The notes beneath the pieces are model-generated. The model was not told the origin of the DNA, searched no databases, and saw nothing but the letters and a program-made list of their open reading frames with translations. This document shows, one piece after another, positions 1,019 to 4,930 of a DNA stretch of 5,399 bases. Numbering within the stretch: the first letter of the stretch is position 1; every line of letters starts with the position of its first letter. The stretch is from a virus (taxonomy: Duplodnaviria > Heunggongvirae > Uroviricota > Caudoviricetes): the IMG/VR virus record IMGVR_UViG_2526164693_000018. One strand, given 5' to 3'. A program made the translations under genes and the position numbers.

Positions 1019-1089
1019 ATTATCACCGCCAGAGGTAAAGTAGTCAACACGCGCGGTGTTAGATATTTATCCCTTGCGGTGATAGATTT
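1019..1089. promoter_or_regulatory. Right operator OR1 (1021-1037), OR2 (1045-1061), OR3 (1068-1084), with divergent PR (minus strand) and PRM (plus strand)
   Basis: Three 17-bp lambda-type operators: tatcaccgccagaggta, caacacgcgcggtgtta, tatcccttgcggtgata. PR on the minus strand has -35 TTGACT (complement of 1043-1048) and -10 GATAAT (complement of 1019-1024). PRM on the plus strand has -35 tagata (1060-1065) and -10 tagatt (1083-1088). The cI ATG at 1095 lies about 6 nt after the -10, consistent with leaderless cI mRNA. Confidence 0.9.
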
Positions 1090-1808: not shown

Positions 1809-2182
1809 AGAGGATAGATGGAGTTTAATGGCCATGAGTATCAAGCGGTCAAAAAGAAGTTCATCTATTCATTGAAAGCATAAGGCCATCTGAGTATATC
1901 CGTAATGATCTGGATATTGTCTATAACATCAATGACCGGACGATAGATATCGGTGAGCAGCGTCCTGTATGGCAGGGTGAGGCAGGTGAAAAAACGTCCT
2001 GCCATCAACAAGAATCAAGTGCATCCGCTCTCTGGACAGATGGAAAATTTATTGGATGCAAAAAGATATGAAATAACACCTGTATAGCACGGAGCTTTCT
2101 CTGACCGATGCACTTGAAGTTGTTAGGGCTGACCCAGCCTGCTGTTTCTTTAGGTAAGAGAAAAGAGATTTAGGAGATGAAA

Positions 2183-2209
2183 GGTCGCAGAGGTGCGGCC
2201 TTTTTTATT
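2183..2209 (+). terminator. Intrinsic terminator-like hairpin: stem ggtcgca / tgcggcc (one G-U pair), loop gagg, followed by T6
   Basis: 7-bp stem at 2183-2189 and 2194-2200, then tttttt at 2201-2206. Plus-strand orientation, about 375 nt downstream of the cI stop. Confidence 0.6.
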
Positions 2210-2248
2210 GAGAGTGGATCTTGAACGGAAATTCTCAAGACTTGAGTC

Positions 2249-2277
2249 TTGCATGCAAATCAATTCCTGGATAAACT
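2249..2277 (+). promoter_or_regulatory. Candidate sigma70 promoter for the 173-aa ORF (-35 ttgcat 2249-2254, 17-nt spacer, -10 taaact 2272-2277)
   Basis: Hexamers with canonical spacing about 33 nt upstream of the ORF start, overlapped and preceded by dyad-symmetric motifs (ctcaagacttgag 2234-2246, ttgcatgcaa 2249-2258). Confidence 0.35.
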
Positions 2278-2309
2278 CGATCTGAGTCAATAACTTAGAG
2301 AGAGAGCAA

Positions 2310-2831
2310 ATGGCAAAGTCAAACGTTAGCGTGCAGGCATTCAAGGACTTCCTTGAAGAGCTTATGTCGCTGAACATAATGAAGGAGGCCACCGCTCGAA
2401 ATTTAAAAAACTCATCCGCTCGCCTCTTAACGGTAGTCCAAGAAGAGGAAATGGGTGATGTTACTCAGCTTGATGTGAATGAGCTTGCCGAGCGATACAT
2501 CAACGCAACTGAGCCGAAGCCTAGCGACAGCAGCATTACTGCATATAAAAGCCGCATGGAAAGTGCAATCAAAAAGTTTGTAGCTTTCCAGTCTGGTGAA
2601 GAAATCCCATACACTCCGATTGACAAAGAATCCAGTGAGGAAAAAGATTTGACTGGCGAACCAACAAAAGTCGAAGGCAAGGCTAATGCACTTCATACCT
2701 ATGATCTTCCAGTAGTTCTTCGACCTGAATCAGGGGTTACAGTAACGATTAAAGGCATTCCTAACGATATCACAAACGAAGAAGCCGAACGCATCTCTTC
2801 AATTCTGAAGGTTTACGTTCGGCCTCAATAA
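2310..2831 (+). CDS. Hypothetical protein (173 aa), acidic, no recognised domain; occupies the position of rexA/rexB
   Basis: Longest ORF in the non-lambda segment. Purine-rich stretch gagagagag at 2297-2305 precedes the ATG at 2310. Hydrophilic, net acidic by my count (about 29 D/E against 21 K/R), no obvious transmembrane segment. A promoter-like element lies upstream and a terminator downstream. Confidence 0.6.
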   Translation: MAKSNVSVQAFKDFLEELMSLNIMKEATARNLKNSSARLLTVVQEEEMGDVTQLDVNELAERYINATEPKPSDSSITAYKSRMESAIKKFVAFQSGEEIPYTPIDKESSEEKDLTGEPTKVEGKANALHTYDLPVVLRPESGVTVTIKGIPNDITNEEAERISSILKVYVRPQ

Positions 2832-3004
2832 TGCAAAAGCATTCAGCACAATGTCCAACTCCCCAGTCCGACATTGATGCTGTTTAACCAGAGCCTCCAA
2901 AAGGAGCCCTTGTTAAGGTACACAATATTTGCGATGTAACCTTAGCGCGTCTGGTACATTTTTTCAAGCGGTTGTAGGGCTGCCGCCAATATGAGAAAAC
3001 ACAG

Positions 3005-3127
3005 ATGTCTACATACAATTTGAATGACCAATTCGATCGAGAAGTTCATGTGAATGCCTATGAACGGATAAGGCATGGAAATCTTGAACATGTGTGTGAG
3101 CATTATCGCTCAAGGCCACACCGCTAA
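3005..3127 (+). CDS. Candidate small ORF (40 aa, MSTYNLNDQFDREVHVNAYERIRHGNLEHVCEHYRSRPHR), speculative
   Basis: ATG at 3005, stop taa at 3125-3127, ending 6 nt before a strong intrinsic terminator. Only a weak Shine-Dalgarno (gaga at 2993-2996). Below the length cutoff of the ORF track. The region could instead be a 3'UTR or sRNA. Confidence 0.25.
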   Translation: MSTYNLNDQFDREVHVNAYERIRHGNLEHVCEHYRSRPHR

Positions 3128-3132
3128 TCATC

Positions 3133-3161
3133 AACCCGGCCTCCATGCCGGGTTTTCTTTT
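3133..3161 (+). terminator. Strong intrinsic terminator: stem aacccggc / gccgggtt, loop ctccat, followed by ttctttt
   Basis: 8-bp GC-rich perfect stem (3133-3140 and 3147-3154) with a T-rich tail on the plus strand. The reverse-strand tail is less U-rich, so it is mainly unidirectional. Confidence 0.75.
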
Positions 3162-3341
3162 CCTCTCGCCCAAAAAAACACATAACCAATTGTATTTATT
3201 GGAAAATAAATAGATACAACTCACTAAACAACGCAATTCTGATCTCTCCTTACATCGCCGAGGCAATACACCCACGCTAAAAAACAATACTATTAAATAC
3301 AAAGCGTTGTAAAAAAACGCCCCGTTTTAGAACAAATTGTA

Positions 3342-3370
3342 TTGACCAAGTGAAGTACATATCGTACTAT
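3342..3370 (+). promoter_or_regulatory. Candidate pL-equivalent promoter (-35 ttgacc 3342-3347, 17-nt spacer, -10 tactat 3365-3370)
   Basis: Good -35 and moderate -10 with 17-bp spacing, about 45 nt upstream of a boxA-like element and 190 nt upstream of the N-like gene. A 5-bp-arm dyad agtac-N5-gtact (3354-3368) overlaps the spacer and -10. No lambda-type 17-bp OL operators are visible. Confidence 0.4.
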
Positions 3371-3415
3371 TTAACCATCAGCAGGACGCTGGAAGCCAAA
3401 TGGAACAGACTGGCA

Positions 3416-3461
3416 GGCTCTTTAAACAACGTCGACTCTCGACTACGTGGCTGAAAAGCCA
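3416..3461 (+). promoter_or_regulatory. Candidate nutL: boxA-like ggctctttaaacaa (3416-3429) and boxB-like hairpin tggct-gaaa-agcca (3448-3461)
   Basis: gctctttaa matches the boxA consensus (CGCTCTTTA; closer to the rrn-type TGCTCTTTAACAA). Downstream there is a 5-bp stem with a GAAA loop resembling a boxB hairpin. A second short hairpin gtcga-ctc-tcgac (3431-3443) lies between them. Located in the leader of the N-like gene. Confidence 0.5.
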
Positions 3462-3559: not shown

Positions 3560-3832
3560 ATGTCCAGAAAAACAGAATTTAAAGGCACCGCAGCTTCTCG
3601 CCGTAGAGCTCGTCGCGCAAACCTGCAAAGTCAGGAGGCGATTAGCTCCGACAAACTACACAGGCCAACCCCATCACGAGTGGTCTTACAATGCAAACGC
3701 AAACCAGCAATGAGAGCAGAAGTAATAACACTGACAACGTTGACCAGAAAATATGAAGGCTCAACTTGTCTTCCAAATGTAGCTCTTTACGCGGCAGGCT
3801 ACCGTAAATCCAAACAACTGACAGCAAGATGA
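3560..3832 (+). CDS. N: N-family transcription antiterminator (90 aa), P22 gp24 / phi21 N-like rather than lambda N
   Basis: Start chosen at the internal ATG 3560, preceded by gggagg at 3549-3554 (5-nt spacer). N-terminal arginine-rich motif GTAASRRRARRANLQ, typical of N-protein ARMs. The C-terminus LPNVALYAAGYRKSKQLTAR resembles the P22 gene 24 product as I recall it. Lies downstream of the candidate pL and nutL. Confidence 0.75.
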   Translation: MSRKTEFKGTAASRRRARRANLQSQEAISSDKLHRPTPSRVVLQCKRKPAMRAEVITLTTLTRKYEGSTCLPNVALYAAGYRKSKQLTAR

Positions 3833-3890: not shown

Positions 3891-4142
3891 ATGGAATTTC
3901 ATGAAAGTGCGATTTGTGATTTTCGCGCTAACGCAAATTCAGTAAAACCACAGCCAATTGCAGTTCTTTTTAAAACAATGGGTGCGTGGGCTGTTTTATG
4001 CTTCGCCGCTGACGACACTGACGCAAGAATGGCAATAGGACAAGAGATGGAGATGGACCCGACAAACGATGAATTCATAATTTATGGCGCTCCATCTAAT
4101 TACTTACTTGATACCTGCAACATTTACAACAAGGCTGCCTGA
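3891..4142 (+). CDS. Hypothetical protein (83 aa) in the position occupied by ral in lambda
   Basis: ORF with Shine-Dalgarno gaggtg at 3879-3884, 6 nt before the ATG at 3891. No similarity to lambda Ral that I can recognise except the C-terminal NKAA. Confidence 0.6.
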   Translation: MEFHESAICDFRANANSVKPQPIAVLFKTMGAWAVLCFAADDTDARMAIGQEMEMDPTNDEFIIYGAPSNYLLDTCNIYNKAA

Positions 4143-4693: not shown

Positions 4694-4765
4694 GCGCGGC
4701 GTTACCGCATACCAATAACGCTTCACTCGAGGCGTTTTTCGTTATGTATAAATAAGGAGCACACC

Positions 4766-4930
4766 ATGCAATATGCCATTGCAGGGTGGCCTGTTGCTGG
4801 CTGCCCTTCCGAATCTTTACTTGAACGAATCACCCGTAAATTACGTGACGGATGGAAACGCCTTATCGACATACTTAATCAGCCAGGAGTCCCAAAAAAT
4901 GGATCAAACACTTATGGCTATCCAGACTAA
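4766..4930 (+). CDS. cIII: CIII protein (54 aa), FtsH protease inhibitor that stabilises CII
   Basis: Translation [54 protein letters not shown] matches lambda CIII. Shine-Dalgarno aggag at 4755-4759. It is in a different frame from the 4773..5042 track ORF. Confidence 0.92.
   Translation: MQYAIAGWPVAGCPSESLLERITRKLRDGWKRLIDILNQPGVPKNGSNTYGYPD

Follow-up and report, generated by a model that had tools for sequence, protein, structure and literature searches.

A mobile two-gene cassette at the rexA-rexB position of a lambdoid prophage

Organization of the cI-to-pL interval

We analyzed a 5,399-nucleotide stretch of DNA, referred to here as the window, from a virus of the Caudoviricetes (IMG/VR record IMGVR_UViG_2526164693_000018). 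Positions 3–1500 of the window are 99.2% identical to lambda, and a site-by-site comparison with the lambda and Sakai cI genes showed that the cI allele is of the lambda type along its whole length, with four amino acid differences, the final ~100 nt being nearer to the Sakai allele than to that of lambda. A lambda/Sakai junction within cI at 1398, which would make the gene a chimera, was hinted at by megablast. This candidate was rejected because the C-terminal half of cI is ~95% identical between lambda and Sakai, which explains the apparent junction, and because the entire window is present in an IMG/VR contig (L051) at 99.8% identity.

As originally predicted, the lambda-type DNA ends at the cI stop codon (1808). 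The only match of lambda to the interval 1809–3400 is at 3133–3248, indicating that rexA and rexB are absent, and this part of the prediction also held: the longest ORF in the interval on either strand encodes 173 aa, and neither strand contains a RexA-like (~279 aa) or RexB-like (~144 aa) ORF. Lambda homology resumes at 3133–3248, which is 87.5% identical to lambda 35708–35826, the tImm region just 3' of rexB. The OL operators and pL that follow (3295–3370) are of the VT2-Sakai type rather than the lambda type, and no lambda-type operators were found in the window beyond OR. In a related prophage (L034), lambda cI is followed by the cargo and then by the true lambda OL3/OL2/OL1, pL, and N. 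A repeat search of 1809–3420 gave no convincing iterated binding sites.

Table 1. Features of the window from cI to pL.
Feature	Position	Strand	Evidence and remarks
cI repressor, lambda-type allele, 237 aa	1095–1808	+	Pfam HTH_3 and Peptidase_S24; left boundary of cargo
DUF3024 (PF11225) pseudogene	1818–2159	+	81% DNA identity to intact genes of phi24B and ST160
Intrinsic terminator closing the cI/pRM transcript; left border of cassette	2183–2209	+	Hairpin and U-run; dG -15.9 kcal/mol, z -4.2
Predicted promoter of the 173-aa gene	2249–2277	+	-35 TTGCAT (2249–2254), 17 nt, -10 TAAACT (2272–2277)
173-aa protein gene (H0093, ECs1184, Sp5 ORF23)	2310–2831	+
Structured spacer/leader, 173 nt	2832–3004	+	Fold z -5.1 for 2829–3165
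40-aa gene H0092, type-A small partner	3005–3127	+	Annotated in VT2-Sakai; phrog_21154
Lambda tImm-homologous intrinsic terminator; right border of cassette	3133–3161	+	Hairpin and U-run; dG -14.3 kcal/mol, z -4.8; terminator scan
OL operators	3295–3311, 3328–3344, 3353–3369	+	Transferred from VT2-Sakai annotation (100% identical here)
pL (TTGACC, 17 nt, TACTAT)	3342–3370	+	VT2-Sakai annotation and promoter scan

The first ~350 bp of the cargo are the remnant of a DUF3024 gene, the gene found directly after cI in phages 933W, phi24B, and ST160. Alignment revealed two 1-nt deletions and one in-frame stop; in a three-frame translation the reading frame changes twice with a stop inside, and no intact ORF of ~113 aa for DUF3024 is present at 1818–2159. 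A literature search on DUF3024 found nothing. The question of whether the cargo is a degraded remnant, raised with the original prediction, can be answered in the affirmative for this part but not for the rest of the segment.

The remainder up to tImm is a cassette with the order terminator, promoter, 173-aa gene, ~170-nt structured spacer, 40-aa gene, and terminator. The minimum free energy structure of the left terminator has an 11-bp stem with a 7-bp core (2183–2189/2194–2200) followed by U6, and this terminator is kept directly 3' of cI in Salmonella loci; the right terminator is annotated in VT2-Sakai as that of the pRM transcript. A palindrome, CTCAAGaCTTGAG, lies at 2234–2246 immediately 5' of the predicted promoter. 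In an alignment, Salmonella and Proteus keep the -35 and -10 blocks, a CGATCTG motif, and the CAATAACTTAGAGAGA leader, and Serratia keeps them in part. The predicted 173-aa ORF between intrinsic terminators, with a promoter-like element 5' of it, was thereby confirmed. The same prediction held that the interval contains one self-contained transcription unit and about 700 bp with no convincing ORF. The conserved promoter, the flanking terminators, and the exact rexAB position support the self-contained unit, but it consists of two genes and a structured spacer rather than of one ORF, and the supposedly empty ~700 bp are taken up by the DUF3024 pseudogene, the spacer, the 40-aa gene, the tImm region, and OL/pL. 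Judged from the sequence, rexAB has been replaced in this prophage lineage by a two-gene cassette located between cI and tImm/pL.

The two proteins and the spacer between their genes

In the 173-aa protein, a stand-alone core-binding (SAM-like) domain of the tyrosine-recombinase type (residues 8–94) is joined by an acidic disordered linker (102–129) to a small C-terminal domain (130–166), an architecture that is newly described here. The C-terminal domain was modeled at low confidence as a beta-hairpin and helix, and it belonged to no family when searched alone against Pfam. The protein family comprises 653 clusters at 50% identity, and its TARNLKNS and YKSR motifs are nearly invariant. Searches by sequence against the PDB, NCBIfam, and PADLOC, and by Foldseek against the PDB, gave nothing useful. 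Neither Pfam nor the structure revealed a nuclease, ATPase, kinase, or membrane domain.

The N-terminal domain resembles the core-binding domains of integrases and Xer proteins, and some relatives carry the database name 'XerD'. The protein might thus be a catalytically dead decoy that occupies core-type att or dif-like sites and so affects integration, excision, or Xer recombination. This recombination modulator is highly improbable, however, because the domain is conserved while the accompanying integrases and att sites are unrelated, and because the partner gene and spacer would be left unexplained. The protein also has no catalytic domain: the RHR-Y active site is absent, there is no Phage_integrase match in Pfam, and just ~45 aa of beta-hairpin and helix follow the linker.

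The product of the 40-aa gene, H0092, is left out of the current E. coli annotation. Its gene differs from the Salmonella counterpart at six synonymous and two non-synonymous codons, and 12 residues are invariant across relatives of 38–44% identity. An AF2 model shows a four-strand beta meander with a core pLDDT of 83–95. The conserved pairing of the 173-aa gene with a small gene on the same strand is likewise new. When loci were collected through the 173-aa protein alone, 53 of 59 had a small same-strand ORF of one of three types (A, B, or C, differing between cassettes) ~150–200 nt 3' of the large gene; when all loci with the large gene are counted, such a partner is present at 85 of 91. The pairing holds down to 26% identity of the large proteins, the Proteus locus L007 and the marine locus L021 both having a phrog_33859 partner. 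Chromosomal relatives in Rhodobacteraceae and Paracoccaceae have none of the three partner types, and distant type-A small proteins are also found without the large gene. At loci L077 and L079 the large gene is frameshifted, with the core-binding domain kept and the small ORF intact.

The spacer between the two genes measures 150–180 nt in all 21 loci examined. In the window it begins with a terminator-like hairpin (2844–2882; dG -16.6, z -5.6) directly 3' of the 173-aa stop codon, and it is almost unchanged between E. coli and Salmonella save for an inverted hairpin loop. Rfam assigned no family to this spacer or to those of related cassettes, the sole Rfam match in the window being Lambda_thermo (4753–4811). 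RNAalifold found no structure in an unedited MAFFT alignment of the full set of 21 spacers, and structure emerged only inside subgroups. The spacers of related cassettes covary, with nine compensatory pairs compared to 4.8 ± 1.3 in shuffled alignments (exceeded in 0 of 500). A covariance model, R1, built from the G1 spacers detected the G2 spacers with E-values of 1e-12 to 1e-18, but did not match the spacer of the window even with filters off. We therefore do not claim homology between them; what they have in common is length, position, and strong folding.

Distribution and possible function of the cassette

The cargo segment is 100% identical to VT2-Sakai/Sp5 (H0093, which is ECs1184, and H0092), to ORF b63 of a Stx1-converting phage, and to ORF22 of Nil2, and it is present in 234 of 5,426 complete E. 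coli genomes (4.3%). The sequence is therefore not new, and the genes are known from Shiga-toxin phages as "hypothetical", so that the cassette is not the undescribed module it had been taken for. Also new is how widely it occurs: it follows at least 12 distinct cI alleles and is found in mobile elements of other kinds. Its other neighbors include P4-like primase genes, integrases, umuC, and, once, a superinfection-immunity gene; one copy resides in a tRNA-linked island adjoining a SocA/Panacea pair. A profile search of genome contigs with the family alignment found only one locus. The cassette is thus horizontally mobile, self-contained accessory cargo. These data establish the layout of the cassette, the fold, its mobility, and the conservation of both the gene pairing and the spacing.

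The only published phenotype of the cassette comes from an attempted in-frame deletion of ECs1184 from an Sp5 lysogen, which was not obtained and was judged lethal (PMC5155283). Such a failure is a negative result for which other causes are possible. Cultures of Sakai were found to contain the ECs1184 protein (PMC7618764). The deletion attempt suggests that the lysogen cannot lose the larger gene, and this in turn suggests a role in addiction or lysogen maintenance rather than that of a dispensable exclusion gene. The frameshifts in L077 and L079 argue against strict essentiality of the large gene, although the core-binding part of each is preserved.

A repressor-type reading of ECs1184 was put forward with the deletion study (PMC5155283): the 173-aa protein would act as a second DNA-binding repressor and silence a lytic or toxic phage function. 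On such a reading H0092 would be incidental. The position of the gene, immediately 3' of cI on the same strand, is consistent with such a regulator of lysogeny. The same protein occurs, however, with at least 12 immunity types, in non-lambdoid elements, and in non-prophage islands, and the near invariance of its motifs across so many contexts makes a phage-specific operator an unlikely target. In addition, lambda and 933W manage without the protein, and the conserved partner gene is left unexplained. We consider a lysogeny regulator distinctly unlikely.

Lambdoid prophages classically carry lysogen-expressed genes of host-phage conflict between cI and N, and the original prediction was of an exclusion or lysogenic-conversion module. 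The cassette could be a dedicated superinfection-exclusion or anti-phage defence unit, analogous in function to RexAB and without addiction, given that it occupies the exact rexAB slot, that prophages and satellite-like elements carry it as an autonomous unit at their variable hot spots, in one case next to a superinfection-immunity gene, and that its protein was found in lysogen cultures. Nothing points specifically to exclusion: no match was found among the 5,027 models of PADLOC-DB v2 for the 173-aa, 40-aa, and 83-aa products at E ≤ 1, and enzymatic and membrane domains are lacking. A literature search on sRNAs or defence genes at the locus found nothing. Furthermore, a pure defence gene should delete freely, contrary to the published result (PMC5155283). 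Defence by itself thus seems unlikely.

We tentatively interpret the cassette as mobile and toxin-antitoxin-like, or as an addiction cassette, possibly with a role in exclusion, and place this interpretation somewhat short of an even chance. In type II antitoxins, a DNA-binding N-terminal domain is followed by a disordered region and a small domain at the C terminus. The 173-aa protein is laid out likewise, its N-terminal domain being of a DNA-binding type, its linker disordered, and its C-terminal domain small, and the interpretation draws further on the gene pairing (53/59; 85/91), which survives 26% identity of the large proteins; on the promoter kept across genera and the bracketing terminators; on mobility among many cI alleles, other elements, and a tRNA-linked island; on the covarying spacer structure in related cassettes; and on the failed ECs1184 deletion (PMC5155283) together with the protein in Sakai cultures (PMC7618764). 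Neither PADLOC, Pfam, nor NCBIfam gave a toxin-antitoxin or defence match, and the cassette proteins matched no known toxin or antitoxin families. An argument from charge, with an acidic antitoxin and a basic toxin, failed: the family median pI is 8.55, that of H0092 is about 7, and the charges of the large and small proteins are not consistently complementary. We also counted against a toxin-antitoxin-like cassette the ~170-nt gap with its terminator-like hairpin, unlike classic overlapping operons; the partnerless Rhodobacteraceae/Paracoccaceae relatives and the distant type-A proteins without a large gene; and the failure of the R1 model from related spacers to find that of the window.

Toxicity, neutralisation, and any defence role of the cassette are what we infer in the following model. 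Through its core-binding domain the 173-aa protein would attach to the DNA of its own promoter or to the RNA of the spacer, and its C-terminal domain would restrain the small protein. Expression of the small gene would be held low by the folded spacer and by the terminator-like hairpin that follows the large gene. A cell that lost the large gene would then be harmed by the freed small protein; this would stabilise the prophage and might also provide exclusion by abortive infection. More broadly, and rather doubtfully, the cassette may represent a widespread mobile two-component family in which a stand-alone core-binding-domain protein is linked through a structured RNA leader to a mini protein of beta or zinc-ribbon type, the two making up a new kind of toxin-antitoxin or abortive-infection module. 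The core-binding domain would then have been recruited to regulation, possibly guided by RNA or DNA, instead of recombination. Should the model hold, toxin-antitoxin and defence systems would gain a new family and the recombinase core-binding domain a new role. The model turns a 'hypothetical protein' with a puzzling non-deletable phenotype into a testable proposal, with a two-gene cassette, a fold, a candidate toxic partner, and a structured leader. In E. coli O157:H7 the cargo is carried by both Stx1 and Stx2 phages, among them Sakai Sp5, and anything that stabilises such prophages or excludes other phages bears on the persistence of Shiga-toxin phages.

Comparison with known systems

Like type II toxin-antitoxin systems, the cassette is a small, mobile, co-directional, and co-occurring gene pair whose first gene reportedly cannot be lost (PMC5155283); it differs from their tight operons, which lack an internal terminator, in its 150–180-nt structured spacer with a hairpin. 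The 173-aa protein has the four-helix core-binding domain of tyrosine recombinases (lambda Int, XerC/D, IntI) but no catalytic domain at all, and this also separates it from the recombinase-fold prophage repressors (SPbeta MrpR/YopR, phi3T SroF), which have a full-length core-binding and catalytic-like fold. The Stx phages 933W and phi24B share with the window the slot and the first gene of their cI-to-N cargo (DUF3024, res, stk, a small ORF, and tRM), but here DUF3024 is dead, and the core-binding-domain and small-protein cassette stands in place of the resolvase and Stk kinase genes.

BstA of the Salmonella prophage BTP1 is a defence gene beside the repressor locus and is likewise a lysogen-expressed accessory gene by the repressor of a lambdoid/P22-like prophage. 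It is one large protein, whereas the cassette has two genes with small products, and no sequence relationship was detected. Lambda rexA-rexB has its slot in common with the cassette, which in L034 lies between lambda cI and lambda tImm/OL; both comprise two genes on the cI strand, and those of the cassette end at the tImm-homologous terminator. The genes themselves show no likeness in sequence or ORF size. RexA binds DNA and RexB is a membrane protein, whereas the cassette products are a protein with a core-binding domain and the 40-aa beta protein; and rexA-rexB relies on read-through from pRM, whereas the cassette has its own predicted promoter behind a terminator.

Replacement of rexAB by a known segment

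The window is a lambdoid immunity region, reversed in orientation relative to the usual lambda map (see table), with the interval 1809–3400, pL/OL and N following in that order to the right of cI. The longest ORF on either strand of 1809–3400 encodes 173 amino acids, and a sensitive blastn search of 50,697 phage records found a lambda match to the interval only at 3133–3248. Together these results demonstrate the absence of rexA and rexB, as the original prediction held. The match is 87.5% identical to lambda 35708–35826, immediately 3' of rexB, indicating that lambda-type DNA restarts at the second of two predicted intrinsic terminators, which in the VT2-Sakai annotation terminates the pRM transcript. 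Both terminators fold as proposed, each a stable hairpin followed by a U-run. In a related prophage (L034), lambda cI is followed by this cargo as far as 3248 and then by genuine lambda OL3/OL2/OL1, pL, nutL and N, an arrangement in which rexAB is cleanly replaced.

The interval is 100% identical to VT2-Sakai, Stx1-converting phage, Stx2 II, Nil2, 2851, 1717 and the PA-series phages, where the 173-aa ORF goes by H0093, ORF b63 or ORF22, and H0092 is the name of a 40-aa ORF; in E. coli Sakai the larger gene belongs to prophage Sp5 and is called ECs_1184. The cassette (2210–3165) occurs at ≥99% identity in 234 of 5,426 complete E. coli genomes, which annotate it as a single 'hypothetical protein'. 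The cargo is therefore known in sequence and uncharacterised in function.

Features of the window
Feature	Position	Strand	Remarks
O (cut)	left end	minus	
cII	382–675	minus	
cro	794–994	minus	
lambda OR1-3	1021–1084		
cI	1095–1808	plus	
DUF3024 pseudogene	1818–2159		81% DNA identity to intact copies; single-base deletions at two sites, one internal stop
Terminator	2183–2209		dG -15.9 kcal/mol, z -4.2
Predicted promoter of 173-aa gene	2249–2277		TTGCAT, 17 nt, TAAACT; cross-genus conservation
173-aa gene	2310–2831		
Spacer	2832–3004		
H0092	3005–3127		
Terminator	3133–3161		dG -14.3 kcal/mol, z -4.8
OL and pL	3295–3370		VT2-Sakai type
N	3560–3832		VT2-Sakai type
83-aa ORF	3891–4142		downstream of N
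DUF2528/ea10 gene, cIII with Rfam thermosensor, kil, gam start	beyond 83-aa ORF		
Rfam lambda cIII thermoregulator match	4753–4811		overlaps cIII start; 88.5 bits, E 2.5e-21

Lambda-type and Sakai-type parts of the immunity region

A site-by-site comparison found the window's cI to be of lambda type throughout, the last ~100 nt alone being nearer the Sakai allele, so the placement of the end of lambda-like DNA at the cI stop codon was essentially right. We rejected a chimeric junction within cI at 1398, a megablast boundary, because the C-terminal halves of the lambda and VT2-Sakai cI genes are themselves ~95% identical.

In the prophage the N-domain of cI and OR1-3 are of lambda type and OL, pL and N of VT2-Sakai type; no operator of lambda type was found near pL. 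The same combination is present in L051, an IMG/VR contig matching the whole window at 99.8% identity, and L034 has the matching lambda OL. By EMSA, the apparent affinity of lambda CI was 3.7–6.4 µM for Sakai operators versus 0.2–3 µM for its own (PMC10742460). The sequence AACCAATTGTATT (3184–3196), lying some 100 nt before the annotated OL sites, is a near-repeat of the OL2 core AACAAATTGTATT (3331–3343), and ATACAATTTG (3013–3022), at the H0092 start, is the reverse complement of that core; both may be additional operator-like sites of Sakai type, or coincidences.

Two genes, a structured spacer and a pseudogene

The 173-aa protein belongs to no Pfam, NCBIfam or PADLOC family and gave only weak Phage_int_SAM matches and a match to phrog_2602. 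AlphaFold2 predicts a confident four-helix N-domain (residues 8–94), an acidic disordered linker (102–129) and, at lower confidence, a beta-hairpin-plus-helix (130–166). Its family comprises 653 cluster representatives (E ≤ 1e-3), all of ~165–200 aa, which are built of the same two domains and share the motif PIPLR..L.V.I.GLP.DLT..EAERIA at the C-terminus.

H0092 differs from its Salmonella counterpart by six synonymous and two non-synonymous codons, and relatives at 38–44% identity retain 12 invariant residues (V.V..Y.R...G.LE.V..H.RS.P), so it is a real gene. Its predicted structure is a four-strand beta meander, for which a search found no structural neighbours. When loci were collected through the large protein only, 53 of 59 had a same-strand small ORF starting ~150–200 nt downstream of the large gene; such a partner is present in 85/91 of all loci carrying that gene. 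Partners are H0092-like (type A), phrog_33859 (type B, common to Proteus and a marine metagenome locus despite very different large proteins), or a CxxC...CxC zinc-ribbon protein weakly matching PF23477 (type C). The partner-less loci are one IS1-disrupted copy (L078, its downstream part replaced) and chromosomal Rhodobacteraceae/Paracoccaceae relatives. The latter (L018–L020, L023–L024; 22–24% identity) are stand-alone genes by carB or mfd, flanked by long non-coding stretches and lacking all three partner types; in L023 and L024 a shared acidic ORF of 90 aa follows ~340 nt downstream instead. Some distant type-A proteins (P0256–P0259, loci L092–L094) end in QLxLF-like tails (GQLELFPL, HQLPLFN, HQYDLFA, GQLALFPV), which resemble the beta-sliding-clamp binding motif; H0092 of the window has no such tail, and at least P0259 is encoded behind an integrase at a locus that lacks the large (core-binding-domain) gene.

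The upstream terminator, predicted promoter and 5' leader are kept in Salmonella and Proteus relatives, and less well in Serratia. Between E. coli and Salmonella the spacer is almost invariant except for a hairpin (2844–2882; L013 6532–6570 in Salmonella) adjoining the 3' end of the 173-aa gene. The stem arms are the same and the loop is reverse-complemented, CCAACTCCCCAGTCCG in the E. coli type versus CAGACTGGGGAGTTGG in the Salmonella type, a flip-flop inversion of the kind typically seen at inverted repeats. The region 2829–3165 folds with a z of -5.1. A four-helix structure drawn by hand is 90% paired in two groups of related spacers, with 9 compensatory-change pairs versus 4.8 ± 1.3 after shuffling (exceeded in 0/500 shuffles). 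A covariance model from related spacers recovers the second group and gave no match to the window's spacer, for which our claim is limited to strong folding, conservation and equivalent position.

A DUF3024 gene follows cI in phi24B, 933W-type phages and Salmonella phage ST160, and in Proteus and several IMG/VR prophages an intact copy separates the cassette from cI. The DNA described as lacking a convincing ORF is filled by the DUF3024 remnant, the folded spacer and H0092. The original observation was real and largely accurate; its self-contained unit has the predicted promoter and the terminators, and the cargo is more aptly described as a cassette of two genes and a structured spacer, together with a pseudogene.

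Distribution and possible role of the cassette

The cassette lies behind at least 12 cI alleles (the window's lambda type, Sakai, Proteus, Serratia, two Salmonella and six IMG/VR), each with an N gene downstream. It also occurs beside P4-like primase genes, integrase and umuC, next to a superinfection-immunity gene in a Klebsiella element, close to Arc and Bro-N genes in a Pantoea prophage, and adjoining a SocA/Panacea pair in a tRNA-linked island. That one conserved protein accompanies so many immunity types and non-phage islands makes a phage-specific lysogeny regulator less likely. Between the cassette terminator and pL, Salmonella (L013/L014, 6861–7064, minus) and Serratia (L011, 6871–7059, minus) prophages carry an extra acidic 58–67-aa minus-strand gene missing from the window.

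Working with an MG1655 lysogen, Mondal et al. (2016) failed to delete in frame either Sp5 ORF23 (ECs1184, the 173-aa gene) or ORF21 (ECs1180), the latter being the sole other early-region gene that resisted their attempts (PMC5155283). ECs1180 is the window's 83-aa ORF (phrog_2471, no Pfam match). A 2025 RNA-interactome study detected the ECs1184 protein in Sakai, narrowly short of significance (FDR 0.065) and with a PNK assay signal no better than GFP, indicating that it does not bind RNA strongly (PMC7618764). A role purely in defence is conceivable but unsupported: the search gave no PADLOC match and no effector-type domain, and the deletion phenotype does not fit.

We tentatively regard a putative toxin-antitoxin-like or addiction cassette, which may double as an exclusion system, as the best fit, though short of probable. 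Counting against it are natural alleles with the large gene frameshifted in the linker and the small gene intact (L077, L079), relatives with no recognisable partner, and the long intergenic spacer. The features that this reading fits best are conserved pairing, autonomy, mobility, an antitoxin-like architecture and the reported lethality of large-gene loss; the role of the cassette is now directly testable.
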